A DNA stretch of 63,779 bases, filler included, from Folioceros fuciformis (Eukaryota): assembly GCA_049999805.1 (NCBI GenBank). It is 9 parts of 9 records of this genome, joined end to end, with 100 filler letters (N's around TTAATTAATTAA, not from the genome) between each part and the next. Parts side by side here need not be neighbours in the genome. Positions count along the whole stretch, not along the records: positions 7,649 to 21,348 come from JBNGIO010001997.1; 8 more parts are not named here. One strand, 5' to 3'. The notes under the pieces were generated by a model. The model was not told where the DNA came from, did not search any database, and saw only the letters and a list, made by a program, of their open reading frames with translations. Position numbers and translations under genes: made by a program. Each line of letters opens with the position of its first letter. Position 1 is the first letter of the stretch. Shown one piece after another: positions 1 to 62,472 of the stretch.

Positions 1-1400
1 AAAGGTGGGACCCGTCGTCAATCAGTGCCCGGGGTTTTGCCTCCACAAAGGGATACCCAAGGAGTGGGAGGAACACAAGATCGAGTTGGAACTAGGAGCA
101 GTACCCCTTAGGATTCCTCAGTACAAGCTGAATCCAAAGTACTCACTGAAGGTGAAGGAGCAGCTGGAACTGTACCTCTGAGCGGACATCATTTATCCTA
201 TTGTCACCTCGGAGTGGGTAGTGCCAATTGTCGTGGTACCTAAGAAGCAATTAGGCAAGATCAGAGTGTGCCAAGACTAGTGGAGGCTGAACAAGGTAAC
301 CCAGAAGGACCACTTTCCGCTACCATTCATTGACAACATTTTGGACTTAGTCACGGGACGGATGATGTACTCTTTCCTAGACGAATACTCAAGGTACAAT
401 CAGCTACATCTTCGAGAGAGTGACTAGCCGCTGACTGCATTCACCACCTACTGGGGAACGTATGCCTACAAGCGCAGTGCTTTTGGATTGACTAGAGCGC
501 CAGGGTCTTTCATGAGAGAAATCGTGAAGATTTTCAAGGATTTTCTCCGCGACTTCATGGAAGGTTTCCTAGACGACTTCTACGTGTTCAAGACAAAGGA
601 GGACCATCTACGACACCTAAGGAAATGTTTAGAGAGGTGCAGGGAGGCCAAGTTGTGTCTACACTCAGAGAAATGCTACTTTGGGATGGCAGAAGGCATT
701 TTGCCGGGACACAGGATCTCAGCGAGGGGGATTGAGGTCAACCCTGACAAAGTGAAGATCATCGCAGCTCTCCAACCACCGATGACACTGAAAGAGTTGA
801 GGGGATTTTTGGGCATGGTTGGCTATTACAGAAGGTTCATCAAAAGCTTTGCCAAGAGGGCTGCGCCGTTGACGAGTCTGTTGAGGAAGGACCAAGAATG
901 GGAGTGGACGTCGCCGAGGGAGGAAGCCTTGCAGGATCTGCGAACAACACTTATCTCAACTCCGACACTCAAAGGGCCCAACAAGAGCAAGAAGTTTCAT
1001 GTGTATGTGACGTCTCTGCCTTTGCGATTGGAGTGGTGCTCAGCCAGCGAGATGAGAAGAAAAGGGATTATCCTATCTACTACTCTGGGAGGCAACTCAT
1101 TGAGGCAGAACGGAAGTACACCACCACCGAGAGGGAGGCGTTGGGGATGGTGTATTCGGTCGGGAAATTCCGCCACTACCTGTTGTCCTATGAATGTTTA
1201 CATGTTGATCACTTTGCGCTTAAGCATCTGGTGAACAAGGTGGACTTGTCGAGGAGGATTGCCATGTGGATCTTGCTGTTGCAAGAGTTCACCTTCACGG
1301 TGGAGACTAGGGACGGACGCAAGCAGGTCAATGCCGACTACCTCTCGCGACTGCATACGAAGGAGGTAGTCCAGGATCAGGAGGATCAGTGTGGAGACCC
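1..1400 (+). mobile_element. Ty3/gypsy (non-chromovirus, Athila/Tat-like) pol remnant: reverse transcriptase + RNase H, degraded, integrase absent
   Basis: Translations give SEWVVPIVVVPKK, KDHFPLPFID, FLDDF (RT YxDD position), LRGFLGMVGYYRRFI, and DVSAFAIGVVLSQ / YTTTEREAL (RNase H). There are several in-frame stops and frameshifts between ORFs 488..1234 and 898..1494. Confidence 0.93.
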
Positions 1401-8659: not shown

Positions 8660-8898
8660 TTTGTGCATATTAAAAAATATTTAGTGGAAAGTTTAAGAAG
8701 GTGATGTAAAAGCATATCAAGAAAGCAACAAATAAATATGGCTGGTACAAATTGTTTACCTATTTGTGCAACAAAGAAGTTTGAAGAAATTAATTATGTT
8801 TTAAAAATATTTGAGTATAATATTTTGTTTTATTATTGTAGAGTAAGTGGTATGCATATGGAAATGAGACTTATTTAAATTGCTCAAAGTTTAAGAGC

Positions 8899-10347
8899 AT
8901 GCCTATAACACCAGTGTATAAGTGGAAAGAGAGCAAAACATGGGTGACAATTGATGTGAGCTTTGGATCTGTTACTCCAAATTCGGCAGATATTACGTCA
9001 ACTGAGTGTTTCATTCGAGTAACATGCTTTCCTTATCTTTTCCAAGTTGATCTTAAAGGAGAGATCAATAACCAGAAAAGCTCGGTATCTATAGGAAGAA
9101 ATCATGTGAGTTTCTTTTTAACAAAGAAGGAAGAAGGGTTATGGGGACGACTCACAGCCACAGGTGACAAGGAGAGGTTGTTAGAGAGACGCGAAAGTTC
9201 ACTAGAAGCTTATAGATTACACTCACAACAGGCAAAGGAATCAAGGAAAGCTAATGTCGCTCAATTAGGAAGAGCTATAGTTGGGAAGCAGATTAGTTTA
9301 GAGGATTCTAAGCGTCAAGTTATTGAAAACCGGAAAAACCAAGAGCTCAACCTTGAAAGGAATGTTTTACAATCTTGGCAAACGTCTTCCAAGATTGTGA
9401 AAACTGCACATAAGAATTGTAATGCAGCAGTGAAGGTTGGTTTCAATTGTGATAAGAGAATTGAAGTGGAACAAAAGCCATTGAAAGAAGAAGTGGATGA
9501 GTTGTGTGATTGTGCTGGATTTGAGAGTAAGAGTTGTCAACCTTATGGGAATGAAGAGGAAAGCATGCAAGAAACAATTCTTCCAGCTCCTAGGGCATAC
9601 AATGTTGTTCCTATAAGGTTCTCACAGAAATGCATTCCTCTTCATCTACCAGCTCGAGAAAGCAGGAACAATGAAGTCAAGTTGAAACCCAACACATCTC
9701 ATTTGACAAGTGATGTAGATAAAGTGAATGATGTTTCTGAAATAGTTCCTATCTTCCAACAAGATCAAGCAAATCGACATTTCAAAAATGCAGATTTTGG
9801 TGCAGCTATTGAGCACTATACTTCAGCTATCCAGAAGGACCCTAGTATGACACTTTGTTATGCAAATCGAGCAGCTTGCTATCTGCAAAGAAAGAGCTTT
9901 CAAGCTTGTGTGGATGATTCTACAATTGCAATTGATATGTTGAAAAGGTTGATTTCTACAGCAGCTCAACAGCCTTGGTCCATTTCGACCAAAACCACCA
10001 TTTCTGCACTCCTTCAAGAACAAACATCTTGTTCTTCCAATGTATCTATGATTTCAGACTCTCTTCTAAGGCATGGAGATGCATTATACTTGTTGACTCC
10101 CCTTGTTGAACCTCGTAGTCTTCGATTGAAGAACGATGACCAAGAAATCTATCAATGGAATGTTGTTATGTTGAGTTGTGTTTTACTTAGAAGAGGTGTT
10201 GCCAAGTGTGAGTTGGACCAACTACATGAAGCTTGCTCAGACTTGAAAGAGGCATTGCATTTTGATCCTACAAATGAATGCATTGCCAACTCTCTCAATG
10301 AAGTGCGGTGTAAGATAGTAGTGAAGAGTGATACTTGTCATAACTAA
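8899..10347 (+). CDS. DNAAF4: Dynein axonemal assembly factor 4 (DYX1C1/PF23-like): CS/p23 domain, coiled coil, TPRs
   Basis: N-terminal CS-like MPITPVYKWKES...FPYLFQVDL...FFLTKKEEGLWGRL, a central PAPR...LPARES motif, and C-terminal TPRs (AIEHYTSAI..DP..CYANRAACYL; LLRRGVA..EL..A..DLKEALHFDP). Single exon of 482 aa. Confidence 0.85.
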   Translation: MPITPVYKWKESKTWVTIDVSFGSVTPNSADITSTECFIRVTCFPYLFQVDLKGEINNQKSSVSIGRNHVSFFLTKKEEGLWGRLTATGDKERLLERRESSLEAYRLHSQQAKESRKANVAQLGRAIVGKQISLEDSKRQVIENRKNQELNLERNVLQSWQTSSKIVKTAHKNCNAAVKVGFNCDKRIEVEQKPLKEEVDELCDCAGFESKSCQPYGNEEESMQETILPAPRAYNVVPIRFSQKCIPLHLPARESRNNEVKLKPNTSHLTSDVDKVNDVSEIVPIFQQDQANRHFKNADFGAAIEHYTSAIQKDPSMTLCYANRAACYLQRKSFQACVDDSTIAIDMLKRLISTAAQQPWSISTKTTISALLQEQTSCSSNVSMISDSLLRHGDALYLLTPLVEPRSLRLKNDDQEIYQWNVVMLSCVLLRRGVAKCELDQLHEACSDLKEALHFDPTNECIANSLNEVRCKIVVKSDTCHN

Positions 10348-11103: not shown

Positions 11104-13596
11104 ATGGATCGCGCTTTCGGGCGCCTGCTGCGCTCGCGGACTGCGCTCTCCCGCGCGGTCCGCCATGTTGCCAAGGTGCGCGTACGCGTCCCCCCTGCTG
11201 TCCGTGTGCATTCCTCGATCCCACCATGGATCGCGCCATGGCAGCTCTCTGTTGTTGCTTGCCCGTGTTTCCAGGGGGGCGATCTGTAGGCTGCAATTTT
11301 GCGCTCTGCTCTGTTGTGCTGTGATGGAGGCTCACGGTGTGGTTTGTCGATCTGTTTGCTTGCAGCCGAAGTCCAAGCCGGCGACAGCGACAGCTGTGCG
11401 ACATTTGTACGTGCTTTCCTCCTCAGGTGTGTGCATCCCTGGAAACGCTGACTTGTGATCTGCAGTCCGATCGTGGCTGTGGCATCCGGGGCTTTGGCCT
11501 TGGCTCATGTATTGTCCCTCTGTTCTCCAGGCACCGGGAGAGTTGGAGCTGAGCTAAGGTATGCTCTGTCAAGCTGAGGTGCGATGGGCCAGATGTCTGA
11601 CTCCGCCGTTGCTCATTGTTGGACTTGAATGGACGTGGAATGTTCGGCAGGGGGAACGCGCTTGTGTTTCAGCGAAGTGCTGCTTGGCAGGGATGCATCC
11701 GCAATTTTGCTTCCGAAGGTGCGCGCCTTGTGCTGTCTCCCGTTCTGGATGGTGGAGGAACCTGTGCTCGTGCCCTAATTCAGCAGTGTCAAGTTTGCAG
11801 GCGGTCCGTTGGATGTTGTGGTACCATTCATGGGGGATTCTGTGCCAGATGGAGTACTTGCGGCATTCCTGAAGCGTAGGTTCTATTTTCCTGGTTGTGG
11901 TTGATCTCTATTTGTGACCTGCTATGGTTTACCAGTGGCTTTGCGCGTGCTCTGTAAGTGCCCCCCCCCTGCACTACTGCTGACCTGACCGGTAGTTCAC
12001 CTGGGCTGAATTGCAGAGGAAGGAGATGCGGTGGCGGCTGACGATGTCATTGCGCAGATTGAGACGGACAAGGTGACGATTGATGTGCGCGCACCTGAAG
12101 CAGGCGTCATAGAGAAGGTATGTCGAGTGGCACTCAAGTATTTAACCTTGTTTCTGCTGCAGCTACGAGTTTTTTCACATTTACGGGGCGCATTCTGCAG
12201 CTGACAGCTAAACAAGGTGACACCGTGACACCTGGTACGAAAGTCGCCGTGATTGCTAAAGGCCAAGGCGGTGGGAAGCCTGCTGAGAAGAAAGCAGCAC
12301 CGAAAGCATCCGAAGCTCCTGCTAAGAAGCCAGAAGCCCCTGCAAAGAAAGAACAAGAGGCAGCACCACCTCCACCTCCTCCTCGTCCAAAGCCAGCTGA
12401 GAGTGCTGCATCACCTCCACCTGCTCGAGCGACTCCCAGTGAACCTCAGCTCCCTCCCAAGGACAGAGAACGAAGGGTAAAGCTGTTTTTTTTGCTATGA
12501 AAGATCTCTGGAGCGGGTTTAGCGCGATGCAAGTTTTGAAGCCCTATGAATTTCTGAATGTTTTAATGTTTGAAGTCAATGGCTGATCATAGATACCCAT
12601 GACGAGGTTGCGGAAAAGAGTTGCTACACGATTGAAGGACTCTCAAAACACATTCGCCCTCCTCACTACTTTCAATGAGATCGACATGTATGGTTGCCCC
12701 ACCTTCTGGTTTTTATGTTGTCTGAAAATATTTTCTTGTTCTCACAGGCTTGGTTTTCTGCAGGACTAATCTGATGGCCCTTCGTAGTGACTACAAAGAT
12801 GCCTTTCTGGAAAAGCATGGTGTTAAGTTGGGGTTTATGTCCGGGTTCGTCAAGGTGAAGCTAATTTTTTTTTTATGAGTTTACTTCGAGCACTCTTACG
12901 CTTTGGTTGAGCTGATGAGATGAGGGTCATACAGGCGGCTGTCAGTGCGTTGCAGCAACAACCAGTTGTCAATGCCGTCATAGACGGAGACGACATCATA
13001 TATCGGGACTACATTGATATCAGTATTGCGGTTGGCACTTCAAAGGTGAGTTTCGTTGGATGCCGTCTTATGAGGGGGCATAATATGCTTGCCTCCCGAT
13101 TATTTAAGAGCATGGCGATGTATCTTGCAGGGTCTGGTTGTGCCTGTTATTCGGGGAGCGGATAAGATGAATTTTGCCCAGGTTGAGAAAACTATCAGTG
13201 CCCTTGGGAAGAAAGCAAATGACGGTACAATCTCCATTGATGATATGGCGGGAGGCACCTTCACCATATCCAATGGCGGTGTCTACGGGAGCTTGATTAG
13301 TACTCCAATCATCAACCCACCTCAGGTATTTCTTAAAAAACTGTTCGCTGCTAAAGAGAAGTCCCAGCTCAAATTTTTCCTTAATCCACTTGCTTGTGAT
13401 GCAGTCAGCGATTTTGGGGATGCATTCAATCCAAAAGCGTCCTGTGGTTGTCGGGGCCAACATCGTTGCAAGGCCCATGATGTACATCGCCTTGACCTAC
13501 GATCACAGGCTTATTGATGGCAGAGAGGCGGTGTATTTTCTCCGTGCCATCAAGGATGTTGTCGAAGATCCTCGCCGGCTGCTACTGGATCTGTGA
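11104..13596 (+). CDS. DLST: Mitochondrial 2-oxoglutarate dehydrogenase E2 (dihydrolipoamide succinyltransferase), multi-exon
   Basis: Arg-rich presequence [12 protein letters not shown]; lipoyl domain [12 protein letters not shown]...[11 protein letters not shown]; Pro/Ala linker; [33 protein letters not shown]; catalytic [12 protein letters not shown] and RLLLDL*. GT-AG introns. Confidence 0.95.
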
Positions 13597-14031: not shown

Positions 14032-14783
14032 TCAGATCCCCTGCTCACTTAGGTAGTCACCAAGGCGCTCGACAACTACATTGCATTCACCAGGCTGGAC
14101 CGGTTCCTGGTAGACTCCAATAACCAACGCACTGTTGGTCTTCTTGACTGTAATCCCTCCAGAACCCTGGTGCAAACAACCAAGCCCATGAATACTCAAC
14201 AGCAAACACTCGATATTACAGATAACAACATTATCACCACCCGAGATTTTCCTACTTTTTTCCCGCGGACAACAGCACCGGACTCTCCCTGGATCACCAT
14301 GTACTTCTCGCCACCAAGAAGGAGGCCTGCCTGTGCGAGGGCAGGTACACCAACATCGGGATCCACTAAAGCTTTCACGATCTTTTCAAGCTCGCCTGGT
14401 TTTGCCTGACACAACAGCCAATCACTGATTAGGTTCCAGCACCGCAAGACCGGCAGTAGGGTTTTGAGGGAGTACATGAAGGGCAAGTCAACATGATCAG
14501 GATCTGCATCAAGGACCACTACCAGAGTAAGGCATCCGCAGCTCACAGCACGAAACAGCAACTACTCAGCACACTAACCAACCCTGCAAGTTGCCAACAG
14601 TAGCGCAGATCAAGTCCCCTCCAACAGCAGGAACGCATGGCAAAGGAAAGTGCGTACAGTGGGAAACGATGCGGACTGCGCCCAAACATTGCCATCCTGG
14701 CCGATGATGGCGGCACTGGTCAGACCGTGGCCGTGGCCAAGGTCACACATGAGGTGATCATCCACGTACGACTGCCACGACAT
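14032..14783 (-). CDS. PRF: Profilin, 3 exons
   Basis: Minus strand gives [14 protein letters not shown]...[18 protein letters not shown] / [24 protein letters not shown] / [10 protein letters not shown]...[20 protein letters not shown]. Confidence 0.96.
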
Positions 14784-16399
14784 GGTTAGCTCCTTCTAAA
14801 CCAATTCCTGTGCGCGGCAGAGAGGGTCGGCCGCTGGCAGGATGAAGGAGAGGGCGCGGAGATCAAGGGCGCGGGCGCGCGCGGAAATGCGGATGGAAGC
14901 GTGTGCTGCGTACTGAGCTTGGCAGTGAGAAGTGGCAGCGAAACTCCGGAAGAGACAGCCGATTCTCAGTCTTCGCACTGCTTCCAATATCACCAGTGGA
15001 AAGAGAAAAAGATGCAGCACTACCGAAGTCGATATTTTGCGGGGGAAGATATTCAAGCACTGCAACACCCTATGTATGTACTAGGGTCAAGTGACTACGA
15101 AACGGAGTCACGGCCCACGCGGGCTTTAACAGGAAAAGAAATAAGTTTTTCGCTCACACATATCGCAGTCCATCGTGCCTACTTCTGCACTCAAACAAAT
15201 CCTGTACGGGCACAAGAGGGCTGGATGGAGCAGTGGGTGCTGCATTCTGCATTTCTCGTGCCATTATTTACATTTTCTCGATTAATCCAACACTACCTTG
15301 CCCGACCTCATATGCTTCAATATGTAAGAATCCTTCAAAGTGTATGATATAAATTGTGGTTGTTCATTATCCTTCTATCTAAGCCTTAGAGTTTGATTTC
15401 CGTGCGGTGATTCTATGCTTTCACATATCACTCTTCAAGTAAGTTTCAAGCTTACAATACAGCTCCAACCTTGGATGTCAATACAATGCAACAAATGACC
15501 AAAAGGTAGCAAGTTTCAAGGAAACACCATAGTCACAACTTTCCTTCATTCCCAAGGTTGCCCGAAGTAAATATGGACGATATTTTGCATCTCTTAAGAT
15601 GTAGAGCATTTTCCATCACCCTAAGCAACAGAAAAAGATTATACTTCCAAGTCCCTCCATTCATAGCAATTTTTAGCTCATTATGTTTAGCACATTAACC
15701 AATGTGTGGAGAAAAAAAACCCAGTTGAAAACATATGCAAAGCCCAGCCAAAATCTGATAGCTAGCTAGCTTTCTTGAAGAGCAAAGGCGGACAGAGATG
15801 GATTCTTCAAATTTATGCCTACCTCAGGCACACCTGAAGAATTTCATAAAGTCACGTATCTACTCAAACACGTATGGTGGTTCCCCACCATGGAACTCTT
15901 CGCACCTACAAAGAAAACATAGTATGTGCCCGCTCATGGTGGTTGCCCACCATGGAACTTTGCAAGTACAGATGTATCCAGGTGACAGCAAACGCTTGAT
16001 GTACGTACGGTGACAGTGATGGATAGACGGAACGGTGTCGTGTGGGTCGGATGAGAGTAGGCGAAGTGTGTGGATCACTCCTTGGATGTGGATGCTTAGA
16101 GGGAAGGGCAGCGTGCTTGAGCATTTGAAGCACTTGCTTCGCGTGGTGGTTGGGGGGAGGAGGCTTGTTTTGTTGGTGTTCGAGAAGCCAGAGCTTGTCC
16201 TGGGTGTCTCGTATGATGAAGGCGCGCTCTTCTTCGTTCGGATGGTTCTCCCAACACTGGGCGGAGCATCCGGAACAGGAATCCCTTCATTCCGTGTGCT
16301 TACAGTTCAGGCGGAAGAAGGCGTTTTGAGGTTCCGGGCTCCCGCTTTCTCGTGTGGTCATGCTCTGAGACTGGAGCTGTGGCTGTAGGGATTCCTCGG

Positions 16400-19180
16400 A
16401 TGGATCAACTGGATGAAGCGAAGAAGATTGTGGATAATAATAGTGCAATGCTGCGCTTTGCAGCCATTGCAATGACAGACTGGCTTGGGTTACCTTCATT
16501 CCCTATGGTAGCCAGTGTTGCCCCTCCTCGTACTGGTCCGGTTCCGCTTTGTTCCAAATGCTGGGGAACGTCTAGGGCAGGGACTCGTGCCGTGCAAGTT
16601 CCTGGACTCCAGCCTGGACATGGGCTCGGCACCACTGCGTCGGCGGAGTTCCACCCATTGATGAAACTGGTGGAAGAGTATGTGGCTGGAGGTCAGTACA
16701 GGCTCGAAGGCTTCGGGAACAGGAAGCCGGAACCGCTTTTTCAAACTGTGCGAAAGCGAGGTGTGTCCAGTACCTCCCGCCGCCTTCTGCGGGGACTACA
16801 CCGGCTTGCATGCAGACATCAGCGGTAACCTCATGGTAGCTCGAACATTTCCCTGGATCTGGATGCTTAAATTACGCTGGAAGCATCTTGGAGCCTGTTA
16901 TGTGAATTCGATGGGGGTGGTGGTGTTGTTTCACAAGCTTGAGCAAGCGCCTGTGTGTGTTGTACCGTAAAAGGAATGTTGCCCACTATGATGCGTGTCT
17001 GTTTACAGGGACATGCGTGTTGGAGTACACGTCGTGCATCTGTCAAGTGGCGAAGAAGTATCCCTTCGGAGTCGTGCAATTTTCCCTCTGGCCAGCATCG
17101 CCAAGCTGCCAATCATGGTCGAGGCAGCTCTGCAGTTGCAGGAGTCAGAGGTGAGCTTGAGACGCTGCTGTTTAGTGGGAATCGGATGAGCTACCTTAGC
17201 CACGGCTAAAGGTTAAGTCTGATGTATCTACGACGATACTACACTGCAGGAAAGAAATGGCTCATTGAAACTGAACTCGGCCATCACTGTGAAAGAAGGA
17301 GATAAGTGCATTGGTAGTGGCCAACTGTGGAAGAGGCGCAGGTTTTGCGTGCTATGCAGGCCCTGCTTTCGCTGGAGTTCATAGTCTACTGTCCTGTTGC
17401 AGCATCTCGGGCTAATGCACTTTTGTGTTCTCCGTTGTGTCACTGCCAGTAATTCTAAAGTAAGTTTTGGAAAATGTTTGGAGCTCATGCAGACAATTTC
17501 TGACAACACAGCAGCCGACCTGGTTAGTGACACCTTGTCTTCTATTTGTTTCTTTTAAGTAGGCAGATTCTTGTTCAAACGAAATGCCTAGAAGCGATGA
17601 AACTTGTGTGTAAAGTTGTAGCTGTTTGATTTCAGGTGCTGCAAAGAGTAACCCTTCCCAGTGTCCAGCAGCGGATTGTGAATCTTGGCTTGACTGCAAC
17701 GGATATCTGTCTTTCTCAACGGCAGGTGACGCATGTTCTACTGTACTTCTGCTAAGCCACTCTATCGTTGGCGTGAATATCGAAGCAGTCGTTAGCCAGT
17801 GATGCTAGTCAAGCTTCTGTGCAATCCATCTTAACATCAATTTCTAATGTGTTAGCATTTTGGACTACAGGCTTACCTCGTGGCTATGGGCAAGGCTCCC
17901 AGTATGAAGGGGATGTCATCCCGGCAGATAGCCAATATGTATGTTCCGTAACAGGCAGTCTTGGGTGATCATTGTTTGCTCTTGTCGGTAAACAGCGTTT
18001 GTTTTCATTTCTCATCCTTTCCCCTGCAAGTATTTCATGTTTGCTCTCTTGTAGTTACGACGAAGTCGAAGTCAATTTTTTTTTGCTTCTCCTCTTGACA
18101 TGCTTTCTAGCTCAGGTGGAAAAGATTGACACCAGATGAACGCCTGCAAGTAGCGCAAGAAACCGAGGCTGCAAATAGAAATTTAAGCTTCCTTGAGTTC
18201 AATGGGATTGAGGTCTCTGCTGAGAAGTTACTGGAGGTACTGATTGTCAAGGCTGGTATTGATTGACACTGCTGGAACTGATTGACGGATCTGATTGACA
18301 CTCTGGGTACTGTCCACATGGTGGCGGTTATTATCTTAGTTGCTCACCACGTGTGGACGGCTGCAGTTGGAGAAAAGTTCCCGCAATTGGAGAGACAATC
18401 TAGCAGTTGCTGCAGCTGTGGACAACAGCGGCTCTCCTGCCGATATAGCACACTTACTGTCGATGCTGGCACGTGGAGAAATTCTTTCGCAAGCCTGGAC
18501 GAGCCACTGCTTGTCTATTCTCGCGAAACAGGTTTGCATTTCAGAAACACAAACTAACTTTTGCTGTCCCCAAACGACCTTCAGACTTCACGTGCATTCA
18601 ACTTAAGCTGCTTGTTTCTACTGATGCCTAGGAGCTTTCTGCATGTTGAACTCCCTTTGACCTCTGTTTGCTGCAATTGCTGTGACAAACAGAAATGTGG
18701 ACAACGACGGCTCCCATGTTACCTTCCTGAGTCCACCCCAATCTACCACAAGACCGGCAGGTAACGTCGTGATTGCAACCCCTTTTTTTTTCATCCTTGC
18801 TGTGAGGAAAGGATATCTATCCACTGCTCTACCGAACAATTCGGCAGTGTTTTGGTAAATCAGCGTTGCAGGGGTTGCACATGATGCTGGCATTATTCAA
18901 GTAGAAGGTGGACGTGATCATGTCGTTGTCTCGGCCTTTGTGGATCGCATCCAGCGGGTACGGCCAGGGTCCTTCTTTCCAGCTGTTTGGCGTCTTTGTG
19001 TTGTGGACTCATTGGGCGCCACGCCTTTGTCATATTTCTGAATGTTTGTTTGAACTTCTCATTTTTTCTCTGGGTTCTGTGCAGCATCGCGAGCGGGAAG
19101 CTGAGGCTGTTATTGCGCGAATCGGCCGCCTGATTTACAAAGCATACTCAACCCAAGAAATGCGCCCGAGAGCCGTCTAA
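16400..19180 (+). CDS. Class A beta-lactamase-like / PBP-fold serine hydrolase, ~11-12 exons; start codon uncertain (ATG 16400 or 16448)
   Basis: Hand-spliced GT-AG exons in consistent phase: ..16677, (16816-16824), 17009-17150, 17250-17341, 17450-17522, 17636-17725, 17871-17938, 18117-~18237, 18367-18531, 18693-18760, 18864-18957, 19085-19180. Motifs: FPLASIAK (SxxK 17094-17105), ISDNTAAD (17499-17507), DNSGSPAD, HKTGS (18750-18758), AHDAGII. Confidence 0.88.
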
Positions 19181-19353
19181 AGTAGACTTCGCGTTTCGCC
19201 CCCATGGGATTCTTGTACCAATTCTTGCCCACGTATGTGGCTCATTTTTTTGGTCAACTGTATATTCTGTAAGAACGAGCACTACCCAAATGGATTAACG
19301 GTATTCCGTCTGTAGTCCATTTGCCCAAACTACTCCAGCACCCTCTGTAGTCC

Positions 19354-21005
19354 ATGGCGGTCGTGGAAGCTCTGCCTATGCTTGTGGAGACCGACGAGTC
19401 TCGTTGTGAGGATAGAGCACCAAAACCTCTCCGTTGCCCTCCCAGTGAGTGTGCTAGTGAGGACCGAGCTCAGAAGCCTCTCTGTTGCCCTCCCAGTGAG
19501 TGTGCTAGCGAGGATCGACCTCAGAAGCTTGTCTGTTGCCCTCCTAGTGACGATGGAGCAAAGAAGCCTGTCTGTTGCCCTCCCAGTGAATCTGCTTGTG
19601 GAGATCGAACACCGAAGCCTCTTTCTTGCCCTCCCATTGCAGGAAGACAAGGGATAGCAATGGCCAAGGCACTTGCACAGACGAAATGGGAGGGTGAGCC
19701 CTGGGAAAAGCTGGAGTTGATACACAAGGAGATTCCCCTTGGTGCAAAGCCAGGATATGTGCTTCTGAGGATGCAAGCGCGGGGTATCTCGCATATCGAT
19801 ATAGATCTCATCCGCTTCAACCACTTCGCAAACACAAATGTTCCCCAAATTGTCCATGGTGTCGAAGGCCTGGGCGTCATAGAAGCGGTGTGCGAATTCT
19901 CGGGGGCCCACATGTGCAGCACAGTGTTGTTACGCATCTTTCGCCGTTTTGACTGTTGGATGTTGTCATTAGGTGGGAGATGGCGTGACTGGCTTCACAG
20001 AGGGCCAGAGAGTATGCCCTTTTCAGCTTCACAGATTCCAGGCCACAGGCCAAGGCACATGGCAACAGTATCTTGAGGTGCCTGCAACCGAAGCCTTTCC
20101 CGTTCCAGAGCACGTCACCGACGAGGTTGCAGCCCAGATCTTTGGAACTCCCTTCACGGTGGTCTCCCTCTTCGAGCAGCTGCAGATTCCCAAGGGCGAG
20201 TTTCTGATCCAAGCCGCCACCAACACTGTAGCTGGCAGGTACGTGCTCCTCTCTATCCAGGAAATGCTTAGTGCAGCTTCACGTGGTAAGGGGGTGGCGG
20301 TGGGTTGGTTTAGGATGGTTATCCAGTTAGCCAAACACCTCGGCATCAAAACCATCAGTATCATCAGAGGACTTCGAGGCGGCGTGAAGGAGGAACTGCT
20401 GGAGCTGGGAGCAGATGAAATTATCACAATTGCAGACGGTACGTACTCCCGGTGAACGCTACCCAGTCGAACCGATATCGTTCCATCCAAGCCTCTCAAC
20501 TGAAGTCCGTCGATGACTGTGTGCAGACATACCGGAGCGTGTGAAGCATATCACCGGCGGCAAGCTTGCTTATGCTGCTGTAGATGGAATGGGAGGAAAA
20601 CTCACACAGGTTCGGTTCATGAAATGCATCCGCAGCTAGCCACTCTCATGTTCCAGTTGTACAAACTTTAATATTTTTATGGCTTGGTGGGACTGTGGCC
20701 AACAGAGAGTGGCAGCTTCCGTGAGAGACGGGGGACAGCATTTCGTCTACGGGCTTCACTCTGGAAACGACTTCAACGTGCCGGGGTCTGAGCTAGCTCG
20801 GCATGTTAACGTCCGAGCCTGGTCGCTAGCCAGCCACTTGAAGACGCCTGGAGATTGCTACCGGCTTGGCAACATCGTACTGGACTTGTCCAAAAGTGGG
20901 GTTCTCCACCTTTCTGGCAAGAAAACGTTTGGATTGGAAGCTTTTCGGGACGCTATCAGAGAGTCGATGATAGCTAAAGAAAGCAAAGTTTTGATCGTTG
21001 GCTGA
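19354..21005 (+). CDS. Medium-chain dehydrogenase/reductase (enoyl-thioester reductase / quinone oxidoreductase-like), multi-exon, with a Cys-rich repeat N-terminal extension
   Basis: GxEGxGVIEAVGDGV motif (HGVEGLGVIEA|VGDGVTGFTEGQRV), GTWQQY, FLIQAATNTVAGRMVIQLAK, LLELGADEII, ITGGKLAYAAVDGMGG, and C-terminal KVLIVG*. Confidence 0.87.
19405..19636 (+). repeat. ~51-bp (17-aa) in-frame tandem repeat, 5 units: EDRxxKPLCCPPSECAS
   Basis: The tgccctcc core recurs five times (aagcct.tctgttgccctcccagtga in the best-conserved units); one unit is shortened. Confidence 0.92.
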
Positions 21006-21348: not shown

Positions 21349-21448
21349 NNNNNNNNNNNNNNNNNNNNNNNNNNNNNNNNNNNNNNNNNNNNTTAATTAA
21401 TTAANNNNNNNNNNNNNNNNNNNNNNNNNNNNNNNNNNNNNNNNNNNN

Positions 21449-41047: not shown

Positions 41048-42807
41048 ATGGCATTCAGATGGCAGGTTCCGCAAGGAGTGGTCTTGGGTGTCTTGAACTT
41101 GGCAGCAATGTTGGAGCACGCAGACGAGGCCTTGGTCCCAGCTGTGTATGCGGAGATGGGTCTGGTTTTTGGAGTAGGACCCACGGCACTGGGATCCCTT
41201 ACGTTTGTGAGAGCTCTGGTGCAGGCTCTCACGTCGCCCTTGTCCGCGTATTTGTCAACCCGGTACAACAGAGCACACGTGATTAGTATGGGGTGCGTGG
41301 TCTGGGGCACTGCTACTGCGCTTGTGGGCCTTTCCACTGCCTACTGGCAGGTCTTCAACCCTACTCCAATTGTTCTGCTGTCTGATGCCATGGCTTCAAT
41401 GCGACTGCTTCGATGTTTCTGCGTCTCTCAGACAGTAGTAGGCTTCATTTTGCGCAGGCAATTCTGGCCCGGGCTGTCAACGGAGTAGGTCTTGCGGTGG
41501 TTGTTCCAGCCATGCAGTCGTTGGTGGCAGATTTCCACAAAGACGAGGATCGGGGAATGGCTTTTGGATGGATGCATGGAGCTGGACAGATTGGGACTGT
41601 TGCAGGTGGTATATTCGCCACTGTGATGGGGCCTCACACCGTCATGGGAGTTGGCGGTTGGAGGGTTGCTTTTGTTGTTGTGGCTCTGTTGGGCTGGCTA
41701 GTTGGTGCTGCAGTCTCCACTACTGTGAACGATCCCTTTCACTCTCAACAAAGTTACGATCGGCTCGGGTGTGTATTTTCTGGGATGCAGTTGCTTTGTA
41801 TATGCTTTTTGGTGCTTGTGAGATAGCATTGGGAAATCGGGTTGTGATCAGCCACTTGAATGCTTGTCAACAGTGTGAACCCGGAGCTTGTGGTGGACAC
41901 GGTGGAGCAGAAGGAGACGAAGCAGCAGCCATTCACGCACCAGGAAATATGGGATGGGACCAAGACTGTCTTGTCTATCCGGACATTTCAGGTGATTGTT
42001 GCCCAAGGGATTGTGGGTTCCACCCCATGGAATGCAATGGTCTTTCTCACATTATGGATGGAGTTGCTAGGATTTTCCCACGGTTTATCTGCCTTTCTTG
42101 TAGCCCTACTGTCCCTGGGAAATGCAGGGGGGTCTGTATTCGGTGGATGGCTCGGCGATCAAGCAGCATACCACTTCCCTGATTCTGGCAGAATCATGTG
42201 CTCTCAGTTCAGTGCAGGGATTGGCATTCCCCTTGCTGCCCTTCTCCTTTTAGGACTTCCTAAAGATTCAGGCGCTGCATGGATCTATGCAATAGTGCTT
42301 TTGTCCATGGGATTCCTTATGTCCTGGAACTCCCCTGCCACTAACTGGCCAATTTTCTCCGAGATTGTTCCCGACCAGCTTCGTACCACAGTGTATGCAT
42401 TGGACATGGCCCTGGAGAAGTCACTGGCGGCGGCAGGGGCACCACTGGTGGGGATTCTGGCGGAGCATGCATTCAGCTTCCACAAGGTTGAGAAGGATAG
42501 AGATGGAACCGTTTCCAAGGATCTGGTCAACGCGAACGCTTTGGGCCATGGGCTCTATTTCTGCATAGCGGTGCCGTTCCTGTTGTGTGTTCTTGTCATC
42601 ACGCTGTTGTACCGCACGTACCCAAGGGACAGGGATCGGGTGCGGACCATGAGCACCTCATTGGACGATGGCAAGGCCCTGCAAATGGAGGACATTTCTA
42701 GGCAAGTTTTGCGAGACTGGGATGAAACTTGGAACGCTTTGTTGGAGGACGCGGCAGAAGATACTGCGTTCACAGACAGATCTACGCTGATAACACCTAC
42801 GCCCTGA
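41048..42807 (+). CDS. Major facilitator superfamily transporter (Spinster-like plant MFS), 3 exons
   Basis: NLAAMLEHADEALVPAVY, RYNRAHVI..G, RAVNGVGLA.VVPAMQSLVAD, DRGMAFGW, FQVIVAQG..GS.PW, P.TN.PIFSEIVP, LYRTYPRDR, plus multiple hydrophobic segments. Confidence 0.92.
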
Positions 42808-47278: not shown

Positions 47279-49419
47279 TCAAGCGCCAGTCTCTTCTCGC
47301 ACATGCGGAGACTGGATGTGCTCCAAAGCAGGAATAATGGAGGAAGGGCATCTGTCATCGCCAGGGCCTTTCACTTGACAAAAGCACTCCGGCCAGGGAT
47401 TGGTGTAGAATGACTCGGGTGGTGTTCGACGGTGGGGGCCTCCGGATGGACTGCTCTTCATGACTTCCCTCACTGACGCCTCAAAGCTGCGTTTGCCCAT
47501 CCAACCTGACTCCATTTTCATGAACACTGGAGCAAGTGCTTTCCTGTCAGGCCGCAGACTTGTTCGGAAGCCATAATACAGGCGGTGGCCCAGAAGATTG
47601 TTGGCAAAATTGCTCGGTCCATCGTACGTCGGTAGGAAGATATCTGCAAGGAGGCACACCATGTAGTCCACGGCTGGTCCTAGCAGACCCTTGCCCTCGG
47701 CATTAACTTTAGCCAACTCCTGGGGAGTGGCCAGAGTCAGGCGGCGTTCAACGTGAGGAAACAGCTTGCGGAAAGGCGCCATAAACCGCTCCCCACCAAA
47801 TATTTGCCCGGCGGCCACGTATATCCTAGTGCTGTTGTCGAAGCCCATGGCCCTCAGGATAAGTCCTACCTGCGGCCACACACATTTCACGTCAGCCACG
47901 TACCGCAAAGGGTACCCAGAGTAGCCTTTGCAAGACGGTACCAGACCGGACCCGTTACCTCCTCTGGAGTAAGAGGGCATTTTCCGATCTGCCTTCTTTC
48001 CTTGTACTCTAATTTCTTGGCTGCAAAGTTCCGTTTTCGATACTCTCGCAAAATCTTTTGTTCCTCTGGTGTGAATATGTCCAAGCACCTTCACCCACAT
48101 GACACACATACACAGCTTTCAGCAAAGGAACACATCAAAACAAGTTGTCCACATCGGACGACTGGCTTGCAAAGTAATCGCCGTACCCAGCAAAAGCAAG
48201 CATGTCCTGTTCGAAACGGAGATGAATTGCCACAAAATGTCCCTCAGACCGAAGCCGTTGAACAATGAGCTTGCTCAGGTCCATCACTTCCTGTCGAAAC
48301 CGTAGGGCATGGAAGTTTACACGACATCTCAGTCTTTGATACTCATGATTGTCAAGCTCCTCTGCCAAGCGATGCGAAAAGGGAGTGAGATACACAGCCC
48401 CATGCTTCTTCATCTTCTCCAACGCTTCTGTCTCATACCAGCTTGGCTGAGCATCTCGAGGAGGCCTTAGCTGTGGCCACATTCAGGACGACGAATTTAA
48501 GGGACCACAGCCATCATCGTTATTCTCTTCTTAGGCTACACCGCCTGGAAAACGCGTACCTGAAAGGGCCTCAGTCCACTTCTCCTTGGCAGTCTTTCCA
48601 CAATCCTCACATCATGTTTCAATGTCCGGATGAAGTGAGGAACGTCATAGATACCTGAGAAGTTACTGAAAGGAGAGGTCCAGTCACTGCAACTGTATTC
48701 TCTCAGATCAAACTACACCGGACCCTAACGGACAGCACCTAACCTGTGATCGTGCCAAAAGGAGTTTGTGTCCAGCTCTGGGATCACTAGTGTTGCATTC
48801 ATGATGCGTGCAGCCAGCACGGCATTACAAATCTGCATGCATAGAGGAAGCAGCATTCTCAACCAAGGCAATATACACCATAAAAAAAAGAAAAAAAAAC
48901 CCTAACGCCCTGGAACATGAGAAAGATCTGAGGCCAGCAACAACGGAGCGGAAGACAACAACTGCGCACTTACAGCCGTGCGCTGCTGATTTAGCCCGCC
49001 ATTACAGCGGACAATCAGGTAGCCATTACCCCGCTTTGAAGGCTCTGCGGGAACACAGCAGCGATTATAATCGAAGCCCACTACTCTTCCCACCCCCCCG
49101 TTCCCACCTTCACCTCCTATTTCAAACGAATAAGAAGAGCAAAACAGTCCCGTGGTACAACTCACTTACCAGGCCAGCTCGCGGCTCTCAAAACCGATGA
49201 TGGTCTCCAGTCATCCGATGCTGCGGGAAGCCACAGTTTATCCACATCTATCCTCGTCTGGTCAATACGTCGGTCCTCTTTCATCCGAACCAGAAGAGAC
49301 AGGGAGACGAAAAACAAGAGCAAGTAAGCAATTTGCGGTGCCATGCAAAGCGTCCTCAAGCTGGCTGTCGCCTGCCTCCATTTTCGCCTCCCTACTCTCA
49401 TGCCGACACCTGTCGGCAT
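47279..49419 (-). CDS. O-fucosyltransferase family protein (DUF246/GT106), multi-exon; start approximate
   Basis: N-terminal TM; GYLIVRCNGGLNQQRTA; YQRLRCRVNFHALRF; HLRFEQDMLAFAG; GKCPLTPEEV; IYVAAGQIFGG; AVDYMVCL; NNLLGHRLYYGFR. Confidence 0.93.
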
Positions 49420-50158
49420 GCCGGACGGAGCCACAGCTAATGCACTTCACTGCAGCAGCAGCAGCTCTGAACCATAGTCTCCACTCCAAGCATCACAATG
49501 CGGCATGGGACGCCCTCTGAGGCAGCTGCTGAACATATTGACGAGCCCAACTCTTGCACGACAGACACCCATATGCATATGCATAAGCACACAAACGAAT
49601 TGAACCCAGCTCCCCGAGCTCTCCAACCACACCACACGCACACAGAACGGGCACTGAGCTGCACGACTCGAGGTTTATTCAGCACGCGCCAGAGCCCTCG
49701 CCAAGCCTTGATGCAAGAACTCCGTACACAGCGTAATAACAGCAACGATGGCAGATCACAGGGAGCAAGAATTCATGACGGCCTTCACAGTGCGATCGTG
49801 ATGCCGCATGCCAGAGGCAAGCAGCAGCGGCAGCCCTAGAGCTACCCAGTCTCGCTTCCAGTCCATCACATCAAGTCCAGGCACGGCTAGCCCGGTCGGT
49901 CCGACCCCGAACTAGGGGACACTTCATGAACATGACACACTGTCCCTAGCCGAACCGGGAGGTGTCGGGCTCCGTTTGGTCACCGGCGATAGCCGGTCAC
50001 TCACGTCGGGGCTTCCTAACGTCTCTCTTTACTCGTTGCGTTGTGAATCGGGCGTGGGTCTCCCGCCGTCGCCTCGGCTTTGAACGATTTGAAGTCCGAG
50101 AGAGGAAAGGAAAGGAGGGGAGAACGGAGGGCGAGATTCTGTCCTGGGCGATGAGAGG

Positions 50159-53100
50159 ATGGCGCTGAGGGAAGCCAGTGTGCAGCAGCGGCGACAGGCC
50201 AATGCGAGCGCGAGTGCCAATGCGGTGGAATGTTGGAGCAGCGACGCGATTCTCCGCACCGTGCAGGATCGAGGAGACGGTGCTGCTGGCCTGTCCGCGC
50301 AGTTGAAGCTCTACCTGGCCCCTCTGGCCGCGTCCCGCATCCGGCCGGGGGGGAAGGAGAACGGTCAGGGCTGCCAGGAGCACGCCCTGGCCAAGCAACA
50401 TCTGCCGTTTCTAGTGCAGCTGCTCAAGCTCTGCTCGAGCTCGCTAGCTGCAGGGCCCGGGGGATGTGACGGGGTAGCGCAGGGGAAAGCGGATGAGCTC
50501 CTTGCGGCCATGGCTCTGGCCCTGGACTGCCTCCACCAGCTCCGGACCTGGCTAGCTGGCCCCTGCTTTGAGATTGAGATTCAGAGGTACCGGCTTGTGC
50601 GGCTTCTCATCACGTGGAAGCGGTACAGGGATGCGGGTAGCCAGTGCTGGGAGCTGTATAGGAGCCTCTGTTCCACGGTGTTGGGGAACAAAGGGGTGGT
50701 AGGGGAGCCAAAGACCGCTGCTTCCGGGAAGGGGAGCCGGCAGCGAAGGGTGCCGGTGGATGTGCTTGAGGATGTCAGCTTGCCGCCCCCGCAGCCGGAA
50801 GACGATTCCTCGGCGCTTCCAACGCTGGTGATGGGGGTGGCAATGGACCTGTTTTTTTGCACGGCTGAGAATGGGGATTGCTCGTCAGACCTTGTGCGAG
50901 TGCTGTTGTCGTTGCCGGAGCGTTTAGATCCGTGGTTCAGGTGGGAATTGGATACTTGTGTAAATTCTCACGGAATTCTGTAAATGTTGGTGAAACTCGA
51001 ACTCAGACATGATGTGATGCATCCAGGGAGTTGGTCTTCATGGACGAAGACTAAATTTTGGCACTGTCCCACTCGACTTTGTTTGTGCGCAGAATTCTGC
51101 CTCCGGCGAGTGCTGAGAAGCAGCGAGACAGCTTGTTCAGGGGAGTGTACAAACTGGCATCCAAGTTGGCAGAGGGAACTGAGAGCCATGAAGCAGAAGT
51201 TGTACAGAAGTTTTGTACCCTTGCACTCCATTGTTGTGCTCTTTCTTCTCAATGTGGACAGTATGCAAGAGTATGCAGCCAGTTCCTCCTGTGGAAGTCA
51301 GCACTTTTTTGGAAAACACTAGTGACTGCTCCACCGTAGCGTGTTTAGTCGTGCTTGGCCATTTTATCACTGATTCGGGCAGATTTATGGCCCTGCAGGT
51401 TGCCCGAAGGCTGTGTTCATTTTTGTCCAGCCACGCGCCCATGGTAGCGGTTAGCGTCAGCCGGGCATGCCTATCTGAAATCTGTCAAATGAGTCAGGTT
51501 AGGTCTCCGACATGGGTCTTGATGCTTTGCTGTTCAGCGACCTGCTTTTATTTCCCTGTCTGCCCTCTGAGGGCCCCATGGCTTATTTGAGTCTTGAAAT
51601 CTCTGCAGGAGTCTATCCTGTGGGACAACCCCGAAGTCGGAGACTTTTTGGATTCCTTTGCCAGGCTGTGCCAAGCTGCAAATTGCAATCTGCTTGGTGC
51701 TGAAGACATTCAAGCCCTTTCGCACAGATTCGGCAAGAATGTGCGTGGCTTACACCGAAGTTCAGCTTCATCTTGTTTCGAAAGGCCCCTCGACGTCGGC
51801 CAGTTGAACATTGCAGCAGATTTAACTTTTTTCGCCTGTGCCATTTTTCTGTTGTGATAGACTTCCATTTTAGCTGGAGTGGGTGGCCTCTATGCCGTGG
51901 GGCTGTTATTTGCGGAGACTGAACAGTTTGGAGATGGGAAGAAGATTTCTCAATTGTTGAGAGCCCTCGACAAAGCAGCGGAAGGTGTTCAATTCCTGCT
52001 CAGCCAAAAGCCGACGGAAGTGACAAACAGGAAAATTGCCATGGAAGAGCATTTCAAGGTGGTTGCAGGTCACTGCTCAGTGAAGATATTGGCATCCGTC
52101 TTCAAAGCGCTGGACTTTGTACGAAGGTCGTCAGCCAAGTTCGTCCAGGCACAATGGAATGCGTATATTTCAAGTTCCTGTTCCGCAAAGATTGAGGAAC
52201 CCTTCAGCGGATTGTTGGAGTTGTTGGAGCAAATCTTGCATCTGCTGTGTTTGGTTGTACAGGGTGGTTTAAGGTAACTAAGTGCTCTTCTCTGAATTTA
52301 TCGTTTGTAATCGTGATAGATAAAGCTACTCTTTGGTGTATCAGAGCCATACATTTGAGATGTCTACGTGTGCCTGCCACAGGAGCACAGACACAAAAGA
52401 CGCCGAAAGAGAAGTTCTTGAGAAGGGCCATAAATGTGTTTCAGCCGCAGCAGTTGCAGCTTTGAAACTTGCAGTTCTGACAGAAGAGAAAACCGAGGTA
52501 CGAAAGACAAGTACATAGGAATTATGTTCCAACCTGTCTAACTTGCATTTTCCTTCCTCCCTAATCTGCATCTGCGGTATGCATCTCAGAGACATCTGCT
52601 AATTTTGGGGGATATTCTGCGGAGGACTGAAGCAGACGAAGAGGAGCTTCGTTGGTTGATGTCATCAACTTACAATGTCGGTGTCCAGATGTTCAATGCT
52701 ACAAAGTATGGGCTGGTGAGTGGAAGAATTCGTTGAAATGTGGATACTTGAACAACTGAGTGGGCACAACTGACAGATGCAAGGTGTGCAGGCAGTTGGT
52801 CCCTTGCGCTTGGCTTATGAGTCTGCCTGTGCCACTATGAACTTGAGGTCCCTCCACAAGAATACAGCACTCTCAGACCTGGAATCTATAGAACTTTCAA
52901 GCGCAGTAACGGAATGTTTGGGCAAGTGTGTGGCTCTTGTTGATGCTCTCACACGATGTGAGGACTACGAGGGTTCATCCCAGGCGCTTATAGATGGTTT
53001 GTATCGTTGGGGCAAAGCGCAAGCACTGATGGTGCAAGTGCCCAGACCTCGTCAATTGATTCGTCTCTGGGTCAAGGTATGTGCAATCTGGACTTGGAGG

Positions 53101-61026: not shown

Positions 61027-61126
61027 NNNNNNNNNNNNNNNNNNNNNNNNNNNNNNNNNNNNNNNNNNNNTTAATTAATTAANNNNNNNNNNNNNNNNNN
61101 NNNNNNNNNNNNNNNNNNNNNNNNNN

Positions 61127-62372: not shown

Positions 62373-62472
62373 NNNNNNNNNNNNNNNNNNNNNNNNNNNN
62401 NNNNNNNNNNNNNNNNTTAATTAATTAANNNNNNNNNNNNNNNNNNNNNNNNNNNNNNNNNNNNNNNNNNNN

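Follow-up and report, generated by a model that had tools for sequence, protein, structure and literature searches.

In true class A beta-lactamases, a glutamate at position 166 of the omega loop (Glu166) serves as the general base for deacylation, and the omega loop is what sets beta-lactamases apart from DD-peptidases. To our knowledge, serine enzymes of the class A/PBP-A fold that recognise penicillins are regarded as bacterial. LRA-5, recovered from an Alaskan soil metagenome and labelled a "class A beta-lactamase precursor" (PDB 8EO5, 8EO6 and 8EO7), naturally lacks Glu166 and has a valine there, and PBP-A of Thermosynechococcus elongatus (PDB 2J7V, 2J8Y, 2J9O and 2JBF) carries the SxxK, SDN and KTG set without a glutamate at the equivalent position. 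The available part of the paper on PBP-A describes it as a penicillin-inhibited DD-carboxypeptidase and DD-endopeptidase that is specific for amidated muropeptides, and describes its family as restricted to cyanobacteria (PMC11189452). Here, we analyse a 63,779-nucleotide stretch of DNA from Folioceros fuciformis (assembly GCA_049999805.1; the whole stretch is referred to as the window, and positions count from its first letter), in which positions 16400-19180 hold a gene for a protein of this fold. The encoded protein, which we call the window protein, belongs to an unstudied PBP-A-like subfamily marked by an insert, of which it is a eukaryotic member with introns in its gene. We consider it fairly probable that the gene is a functional streptophyte nuclear gene acquired by horizontal transfer, and that its product is a DD-peptidase-like enzyme and not a true beta-lactamase. 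Our literature search returned no paper that describes a gene of the class A/PBP-A type from plants or algae; the supplementary tables of horizontal-transfer surveys, which lay outside that search, might list the family.

A spliced and expressed nuclear gene

The gene lies on the (+) strand and consists of 11 exons (Table 1), which together give a coding sequence of 1434 nucleotides, that is, 477 amino acids and a stop codon, with no internal stop in a script check. All ten introns begin with GT and end with AG, measure 99-184 nucleotides and have mutually consistent phases. A previous reading of this DNA, made from the sequence alone (the sequence-only reading), had proposed about 11 GT-AG exons that splice into one stop-free protein, and rebuilding the gene from the sequence bears this out. 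That reading had also reported the class A motifs in their usual order, with SDN about 66 residues after the nucleophile. All of them are present, in the order SIAK (Ser171), SDN at 237, D-N-S-G-S-P at 356, KTG at 412 and then AHDAGII, and the distance from Ser171 to SDN is exactly 66 residues.

Splicing was assessed in four of the ten sequencing runs listed for the gene. Runs X1 and X4 are DNA, and runs X3 and X5 are classed as RNA by an automatic guess. X3 carries the same species label as the window, comes from a different sample and study, and yields contigs that are 100% identical to it, and X5 comes from a species that is approximately 90% identical. The X3 contigs join exactly at nine of the ten model junctions. 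The X5 contigs join at all ten places, six of them as clean GT..AG joints and four offset by about one letter beside substitutions, and X5 thereby confirms the tenth junction. No joint was found across the gene in the DNA runs, whose contigs contain the introns. X3 also includes unspliced pieces spanning introns 3, 6 and 9. For exon 10, an acceptor AG at 18870-71 was tried and discarded, since it would disrupt the reading frame; the AG at 18862-63 agrees with the frame, with the orthologue P0001 described below and with an X3 joint at 18757->18861 (cut +3).

The junction that differs between the two runs is that of intron 1. The productive donor at 16824 is seen in X5 (joint 16823->17008, cut +1) and is implied by P0001. 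The one X3 contig that was displayed, with five further joints not displayed, uses instead a donor 11 nucleotides downstream (16835/17009). Use of this downstream donor brings TAA at 16826-28 into frame, and the protein then ends after 142 residues. The downstream donor could represent regulated unproductive splicing, or a minor isoform retained by the assembler. Translation of a short protein from the ATG at 16810 in the alternative transcript was considered and is unlikely, since that ATG lies downstream of both the 16400 ATG and four upstream ATGs.

Two further lines of evidence are independent of the spliced contigs. Scanned as single exons against the Pfam profile PF13354 (cut-off 22 bits), exon 2 scores 30.5 bits and exon 8 scores 28 bits; exon 4 reaches 18.5 bits, below the cut-off, and no match was found in the other seven exon pieces scanned (exon 11 was outside the scan). 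A search with exon 8 recovered the orthologue P0001 (482 amino acids, from a 2380-nucleotide contig), which is identical to the window protein at 326 of 476 positions (68%, rising to 76% over the catalytic domain) and aligns to it without gaps over residues 114-469, hence at every junction. P0021, a second record from the organism of P0001, reads through into unspliced sequence where introns 1 and 2 lie. Because single-exon Pfam matches, a gapless orthologue and spliced contigs independently agree, we conclude that this is a real, spliced and expressed nuclear gene.

Bacterial contamination, or an artefact of assembly or annotation, would be the alternative, and one observation is of the kind it predicts: the window protein is 44.7% identical to the protein P0189 from Xenobia, which is as high as its identity to the eukaryote orthologues other than P0001 (44-48%). 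However, RNA-like contigs of two species lack the ten GT..AG introns, which DNA contigs retain, eukaryotic genes and retrotransposons surround the gene, and orthologues occur in three named algal genera. The spliced contigs refute this explanation, which we regard as improbable in the extreme, and the contention of the sequence-only reading that the gene is no bacterial contaminant holds.

Fold, active site and omega-loop insert

In the searches of Pfam, NCBIfam, the PDB and structure databases, P0001 or single exons stood in for the window protein. P0001 matches PF13354 (Beta-lactamase2) with 156.5 bits (cut-off 22, E 8.3e-46), covering positions 1-213 of the 214 in the profile. The comparison with this profile, which the sequence-only reading had proposed for the spliced protein, is thus positive for its orthologue. 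Against NF033103, the NCBIfam equivalog for class A beta-lactamases, P0001 scores 108.9 bits, below the cut-off of 200. Its best solved relatives by sequence are PBP-A (Tll2115, E 2.3e-22) and LRA-5, both of which match in two stretches that skip P0001 residues 275-363. A subfamily profile built from 30 insert-bearing sequences and searched against the PDB scores 192 bits with PBP-A. A search of protein clusters returned only generic PF13354 clusters of bacteria and archaea.

The AlphaFold2 model of P0001, built from 54 aligned sequences, has a predicted local distance difference test score (pLDDT) of mostly 96-99 over residues 131-477, with four ten-residue blocks at 83-92, and displays the two-domain fold, one alpha/beta and one all-alpha. 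Foldseek places PBP-A chains first, with target template-modelling scores of 0.86-0.90. In VIA-align, LRA-5 is the top match (Z 35.2 over 263 of 268 residues, 1.7 A, 27% identity), PBP-A scores Z 33.7-33.9 over 262-264 residues, and true class A enzymes (TLA, PER and ancestral enzymes) fall within the Z range of 32-35 that holds all 50 listed entries. On this model, the scores of LRA-5, PBP-A and the true class A enzymes are effectively tied. Approximately 263 of the approximately 346 domain residues align to the top structural matches, and the remainder is an insert. Thus, the class A beta-lactamase/PBP-A fold with its three motifs in order, as claimed from the sequence alone, is upheld by the PF13354 match and by the structural matches to PBP-A and LRA-5.

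The residue that distinguishes the two kinds of enzyme can be placed through LRA-5. PDB entry titles record mutants of both solved relatives in which a glutamate has been added at this position, PBP-A L158E and LRA-5 V166E. Between wild-type LRA-5 and the V166E mutant, the one difference falls on the residue that aligns with the N of "l-t-N-R-q" in the subfamily profile, and Ambler position 166 therefore corresponds to the asparagine of a conserved Leu-Thr-Asn-Arg motif. A pattern search found N-R at this place in 38 of 43 bacterial rows (one further match is misplaced and four rows have none). Among the 11 eukaryote rows, 9 show Q-R, one gives no match and one is a fragment that lacks this segment. 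The window protein itself has Gln272-Arg273 here, and hence no glutamate, in a mapping made by sequence at the edge of an alignment.

After this position comes an insert of approximately 77 residues, which is modelled in P0001 as five helices with a pLDDT of 85-98. The spacing between SDN and the later D-N reflects it: 119 residues in the window protein and 110-115 in bacterial members, against 76-80 or 46-51 in other homologues and approximately 42 in PBP-A. Within the insert, Trp298, Arg306 and Glu329 (window protein numbering) are nearly invariant. Among the positions mapped as invariant or nearly invariant across the subfamily, S171, K174, S237, D238, N239, R273, W298, E329, D356 and N357 are unchanged in the window protein, as are K412, T413, G414, D422, G424 and others; the exceptions, V68->I172, L173->M280 and N306->H421, are conservative. 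Since the conserved positions are kept apart from these three changes, an active serine enzyme is expected.

Could that enzyme be a true beta-lactamase, directed against the beta-lactams of neighbouring microbes and either protecting a penicillin-sensitive plastid division or shaping the microbiome? The PF13354 match, the class A order of the motifs and the structural Z scores of 32-35 to TLA, PER and ancestral class A enzymes are all in keeping with this, and the conserved Glu329 of the insert might replace Glu166. Nevertheless, the window protein has glutamine at the 166-aligned position, P0001 reaches little more than half of the NCBIfam class A threshold, the nearest solved relatives are two proteins that received their glutamate by mutation, and there is no signal peptide for secretion. 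We judge a true beta-lactamase to be decidedly unlikely. The label "beta-lactamase/PBP" given by the sequence-only reading is accordingly sound as to the fold, and its beta-lactamase half is weakened.

Because Glu166 is missing and the closest precedent is PBP-A, we expect a penicillin-binding enzyme resembling a DD-carboxy/endopeptidase, with slow deacylation of beta-lactams and without efficient beta-lactamase activity, a chemistry that we infer from the residues retained. The protein would be a serine acyl-enzyme hydrolase of the PBP-A/class A beta-lactamase fold, in which Ser171 would attack a D-Ala-D-Ala-type peptide bond or a beta-lactam ring and become acylated. Lys174, together with Ser237 of the Ser237-Asp-Asn239 motif, would assist by shuttling protons, and Lys412-Thr-Gly414 would bind the carboxylate of the substrate. 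The general base Glu166 would have given way to Gln272, followed by the conserved Arg273, and the rest of the omega loop to the five-helix insert.

Origin, targeting and possible role

The named eukaryote homologues are Klebsormidium nitens KFL_000850290 (P0002, 48% identical to P0001), Mesotaenium endlicherianum ME000133S00545 (P0005) and two Closterium records, one of which, CLOM_g13275, is P0006. All are annotated either as hypothetical or by an automatic domain name. These streptophyte algal orthologues are 44-48% identical to the window protein, share its insert and its Q-R motif and belong to one clade with it, whereas their N-terminal extensions differ from that of the window protein and Closterium has extra low-complexity inserts. 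A search for proteins sharing exact words, which is not exhaustive, gave 20 homologues, with no named land plant (moss, liverwort, lycophyte or fern) among them. Rows P0001, P0022, P0023, P0039, P0051 and P0055 were assigned as eukaryote-like because their N-terminal extensions are long and because of where they fall in the tree. P0023 (902 amino acids) has a low-complexity region of approximately 550 residues ahead of its catalytic domain, compared with approximately 130 in the window protein.

An exhaustive HMMER scan returned 4743 proteins at E <= 0.001 and 38 at E <= 1e-30. The bacterial-looking homologues have signal peptides and already contain the insert. The best 120 matches to the subfamily profile are all bacterial-looking, and the quarter or so that carry an organism name are labelled Eremiobacteraeota, Vulcanimicrobiota, Xenobia, UBP9, Bruticola or SCN 62-11, or in some cases just "bacterium", with two Armatimonadetes and one Nitrosotenuis as odd labels. 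No cyanobacterial label occurs among the named members of these 120. In species-representative genomes, the six closest loci among the matches listed lie in four Eremiobacterota/Vulcanimicrobiota metagenome-assembled genomes (MAGs), one unclassified bacterium and one "Burkholderiales" MAG contig. When the insert was used by itself as the query (83 residues), it turned up in 48 of the 401 genomes sampled from the phylum (Eremiobacterota) of G001, the MAG with the closest bacterial homologue, locus L001. The same query gave 0 of 401 for the phylum to which an Acidobacteriota-labelled genome belongs, 0 of 401 for that of a Chloroflexota-labelled genome, and 0 of 5 other genomes.

The Eremiobacterota/Vulcanimicrobiota proteins annotated as "serine hydrolase" (P0182, P0189, P0208, P0215 and locus L001) are 40-45% identical to the window protein and have in common with it the insert, the N/Q-R and D-N motifs and all catalytic residues. 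They differ from it in having signal peptides and no introns, in their length of approximately 350-390 amino acids, and in having asparagine where the streptophytes have glutamine. No study of the bacterial subfamily members was found in the literature search. The neighbours of loci L001 and L005 include a leucine-rich repeat (LRR) protein and pieces of a squalene/phytoene synthase and otherwise belong to no family, and these two Eremiobacterota loci have no gene context in common. G001 itself carries three PF13354 genes (L081, L082 and L083, with frames of 335, 265 and 446 amino acids), one of them with the insert.

A quick tree was built from 94 rows, of which 11 are eukaryote-like, 38 are proteins with the insert, 21 are other representatives and 24 come from the 80 loci. 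It groups ten eukaryote rows in one clade, with a Shimodaira-Hasegawa-like approximate likelihood ratio test (SH-aLRT) support of 96, inside an insert-bearing clade supported at 100. A more careful tree of 67 rows, from which 27 outgroup rows were dropped, gives the same picture. Here, with support quoted as ultrafast bootstrap/SH-aLRT, the ten eukaryote rows, five of them named, form one clade (99/89) inside the insert-bearing group, which is split from the other homologues at 100/100. The window protein pairs with P0001 (100/100), and Klebsormidium is adjacent (95/68). The nearest rows outside the eukaryote clade are P0055 (76/84), the Xenobia protein P0189 (77/86) and locus L002 (67/90). 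Two short representatives, P0096 and P0092, were tried as stand-ins for PBP-A and rejected, because they match the Sphaerobacter enzyme 4EWF better than PBP-A.

P0055 has a eukaryote-style N-terminus and sits, with weak support, just outside the main eukaryote clade, and P0051, which also has such an N-terminus, is very rich in alanine and arginine and forms a long branch inside the clade. The family may thus reach beyond the named streptophyte algae, or there may have been more than one transfer.

The sequence-only reading had suggested a bacterial or endosymbiont origin. Descent from bacteria is supported by the nesting of the eukaryote clade within a bacterial subfamily. An endosymbiont (cyanobacterial) origin is unsupported, because the derived insert of approximately 77 residues is shared with a bacterial subfamily of which most named members are Eremiobacterota/Vulcanimicrobiota, and PBP-A does not have it. 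Of the phylogeny that reading had proposed, the bacterial and algal homologues are in our trees and place the eukaryote clade inside the bacterial subfamily, and cyanobacterial PBP-A is absent from them. Most likely, there was one transfer from a bacterium to a streptophyte, and we infer an Eremiobacterota-type donor and this direction from the trees and the shared insert. After such a single transfer, the ten spliceosomal introns would have been gained, and the N-terminal extension of approximately 130 residues would have replaced the bacterial signal peptide.

That extension begins with approximately 33 conserved residues and is then rich in Ser, Thr, Pro, Ala and Arg and poor in acidic residues; eukaryote members have long extensions instead of the signal peptides of bacterial members. 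Residues 16-90 of the window protein contain 2 acidic and 6 basic residues, with 15% Ser/Thr, 13% Ala and 12% Pro, a composition that is transit-peptide-like. The equivalent stretch of P0001 has 1 acidic residue and 25% Ser/Thr, and Closterium P0006 and P0022 begin with Met-Ala and have a similar composition. In the model of P0001, residues 3-27 form a helix (pLDDT approximately 70) and residues 34-118 are disordered (pLDDT below 50). As judged from composition, the extension looks like an organelle-targeting region behind an acidic cap. Our best guess for the compartment is an organelle, with plastid peptidoglycan as a possible substrate.

The sequence-only reading had offered three roles, namely remodelling of plastid peptidoglycan, protection of plastids from microbial beta-lactams, and interaction with bacterial symbionts; all three are candidates. 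A plastid peptidoglycan enzyme, the main idea of that reading, would be imported to the envelope space and would trim or cleave stem peptides of the residual peptidoglycan during division, whether it was inherited from the endosymbiont or recruited later. Its closest characterised relative, PBP-A, is a peptidoglycan DD-peptidase according to the available part of its paper (PMC11189452), and the named eukaryote carriers are streptophyte algae. One of these genera is Closterium, in which chloroplast division is sensitive to antibiotics that inhibit peptidoglycan synthesis, as the accessible part of that study reports (PMC3398972). The transit-peptide-like residues 16-90 and the Met-Ala starts of P0006 and P0022 point the same way. 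On the other side, the endosymbiont route lacks support, the first 15 residues are acidic, and no moss, liverwort, lycophyte or fern is named among the 20 word-search matches. Moreover, the enzyme is absent from the published list of the plastid peptidoglycan toolkit: the available part of a review names ten proteins (MurA-G, DDL, MraY and penicillin-binding proteins), and the words "lactamase" and "carboxypeptidase" have no occurrence in it (PMC10784329). We regard a role in plastid peptidoglycan as possible, if on the doubtful side. A more specific scenario, in which a periplasmic DD-peptidase of an Eremiobacterota-like soil bacterium was captured by an early streptophyte and redirected to the plastid, as the missing hydrolase for trimming or opening the peptidoglycan at division, is speculative and, in our estimation, rather doubtful. 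If it were true, part of the plastid wall machinery would stem from neither the host nor the endosymbiont, with the helical insert acting as a lid that gives specificity for the thin plastid wall.

A further candidate is a neofunctionalised hydrolase or binding protein for a substrate other than peptidoglycan, for example an esterase or amidase for other D-amino-acid or ester compounds, or a sensor of bacterial muropeptides, with the large insert as a new specificity lid. Every member has the insert over the omega-loop region, it is confidently helical, and no top structural match covers it. Two Eremiobacterota loci lack a peptidoglycan context (their neighbours being the LRR protein and the squalene/phytoene synthase), and the conserved N-terminal helix of P0001 suggests a partner or a membrane surface. 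However, the full DD-peptidase catalytic set is kept among eukaryote orthologues at 44-48% identity, bacterial members resemble periplasmic wall enzymes in carrying signal peptides, and no positive evidence was found for any alternative substrate. We therefore consider neofunctionalisation unlikely.

We favour a horizontally acquired DD-peptidase-like enzyme, and several points weigh against that reading. With respect to expression, X3 and X5 are RNA by automatic guess and are not on record as RNA, and the single X3 contig shown for intron 1 uses the downstream donor. With respect to the enzyme, the model is that of the orthologue P0001 and not of the window protein, and the fold by itself does not separate a beta-lactamase from PBP-A or LRA-5, given their similar Z scores. 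The mapping of Ambler 166 hangs on the final residues of one hidden Markov model alignment stretch, and Glu329 could be an alternative general base, which would make the protein a beta-lactamase or something else. With respect to the donor, about a quarter of the 120 best subfamily matches are named, the genome scan for the closest loci covers the matches listed, the bacterial sister Xenobia P0189 is weakly supported, and the trees contain no sequence known to be cyanobacterial, PBP-A included. With respect to targeting, four of the first 15 residues are acidic, and in the N-terminus of the window protein neither a signal peptide nor a membrane span is clear (the highest hydropathy over 19 residues is 1.23).

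A nuclear-genome member of this family that has ten introns, keeps its catalytic set intact, shows evidence of expression in two species and has orthologues in three or more named genera of streptophyte algae bears on three questions. These are how the omega loop tunes acylation against deacylation, how large a share of streptophyte biology was gained by gene transfer from soil bacteria, and which enzymes remodel plastid peptidoglycan, for which the toolkit in the available part of the published review includes no hydrolase (PMC10784329).

Gene features, surroundings and comparison with known enzymes

The features of the gene and its surroundings are collected in Table 1. The four upstream ATGs in the 5' untranslated region (UTR) lie at 16213, 16216, 16242 and 16360, and none of the four is in frame with the main open reading frame (ORF).

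Table 1. Features of the gene and its surroundings, in window coordinates.
Feature	Position	Strand	Description
5' UTR (at least)	16118..16399	+	X3 contig extends to 16118
Exon 1	16400..16824	+	Start codon and N-terminal extension of ~130 amino acids; first domain helix begins at exon end
Alternative intron-1 donor segment	16825..16835	+	11 nucleotides kept when GT at 16836 is used; X3 joint 16834->17008 (cut +1)
Exon 2	17009..17150	+	Ser171 (17094-17096) and Lys174 (17103-17105) of SxxK
Exon 3	17250..17341	+	Conserved C-I-G-S-G loop; C209, G211 and G213 nearly invariant in subfamily
Exon 4	17450..17522	+	Ser237-Asp-Asn239 (17499-17507)
Exon 5	17636..17725	+	Ends with Gln272-Arg273 (17717-17722); Gln272 aligned to LRA-5 Ambler 166
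Exon 6	17871..17938	+	Start of helical insert
Exon 7	18116..18236	+	Middle of insert; subfamily-conserved Trp298, Arg306 and Glu329 (18210-18212)
Exon 8	18367..18531	+	End of insert, then invariant Asp356-Asn357 (18421-18426) and next helix
Exon 9	18693..18760	+	Lys412-Thr-Gly414 (18750-18758)
Exon 10	18864..18957	+	Beta strands after KTG, H-D-A-G-I-I
Exon 11	19085..19180	+	C-terminal helix; stop codon 19178-19180
3' UTR (at least)	19181..19251	+	X3 contig extends to 19251, X5 contig to 19306
Reverse-transcriptase fragment	428..1234	+	At window start
CS+TPR ORF	8842..10347	+	DNAAF4-like
Lipoyl and catalytic motifs	12061..13521	+	Presumably DLST-type, by short motifs
Profilin-type N-terminus	14760..14780	-	Presumed, by short motif
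ADH_N ORF	19351..20076		Alcohol-dehydrogenase GroES-like, E 3e-4
Start of ADH_N gene	19351..19700	+	Cys/Pro-rich tandem units
MFS transporter ORF	41860..42807	+	
O-fucosyltransferase-family ORF	47279..48118	-	
Separase TPR ORF	50093..50983	+	
Copia-type long terminal repeat retrotransposon ORFs	61083..63779	+	Gag, pre-integrase and integrase core

Profilin, DLST and DNAAF4 had been named as neighbours of the gene, and the sequence is consistent with all three: the CS+TPR ORF is DNAAF4-like, and we take the other two to be DLST and profilin on the strength of short motifs. A comparison with Rfam gave 0 matches, and a tRNA scan gave 0 genes. The DNAAF4-like protein hints at a flagellate stage. 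Directly downstream of the gene, the ADH_N gene opens with four or five tandem units of approximately 13-14 residues, rich in cysteine and proline and of the type C-C-P-P-S-E/D, and such an N-terminal repeat is unusual for the ADH_N family. Paired runs of 44 N, 12 bases apart, occur at eight places in the window (5346-5445, 7549-7648, 21349-21448, 31103-31202, 33285-33384, 36619-36718, 61027-61126 and 62373-62472), for a total of 704 N, and resemble masked or withheld sequence more than gaps in the assembly.

Compared with the canonical class A enzymes (TEM, CTX-M, KPC, PER and TLA), the window protein has the same fold and the same three motifs in the same order. It differs from them in lacking Glu166 and in having a helical subdomain in place of the omega loop, and its orthologue P0001 falls below the cut-off of the class A equivalog NF033103. 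LRA-5 resembles it in lacking Glu166 and in its nucleophile motif, P-L-Y-S-V-F-K, which is similar to the P-L-A-S-I-A-K of the window protein and to the P-L-A-S-V-F-K of bacterial subfamily members; unlike the window protein, however, LRA-5 is bacterial, has no insert and has valine at position 166 where the subfamily has glutamine or asparagine. PBP-A likewise has the catalytic set without the glutamate. It is a compact protein of approximately 265-275 residues with a short omega-loop region, reflected in the spacing of approximately 42 residues between SDN and the conserved asparagine, whereas the window protein has the insert of approximately 77 residues and a spacing of 119. PBP-A is also bacterial and periplasmic, whereas the window protein is encoded by a nuclear gene that contains introns and has a long extension at its N-terminus. 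Finally, the PBP-A family is confined to cyanobacteria in the description given by the available part of its paper (PMC11189452), whereas the nearest bacterial relatives of the window protein are of the Eremiobacterota type.

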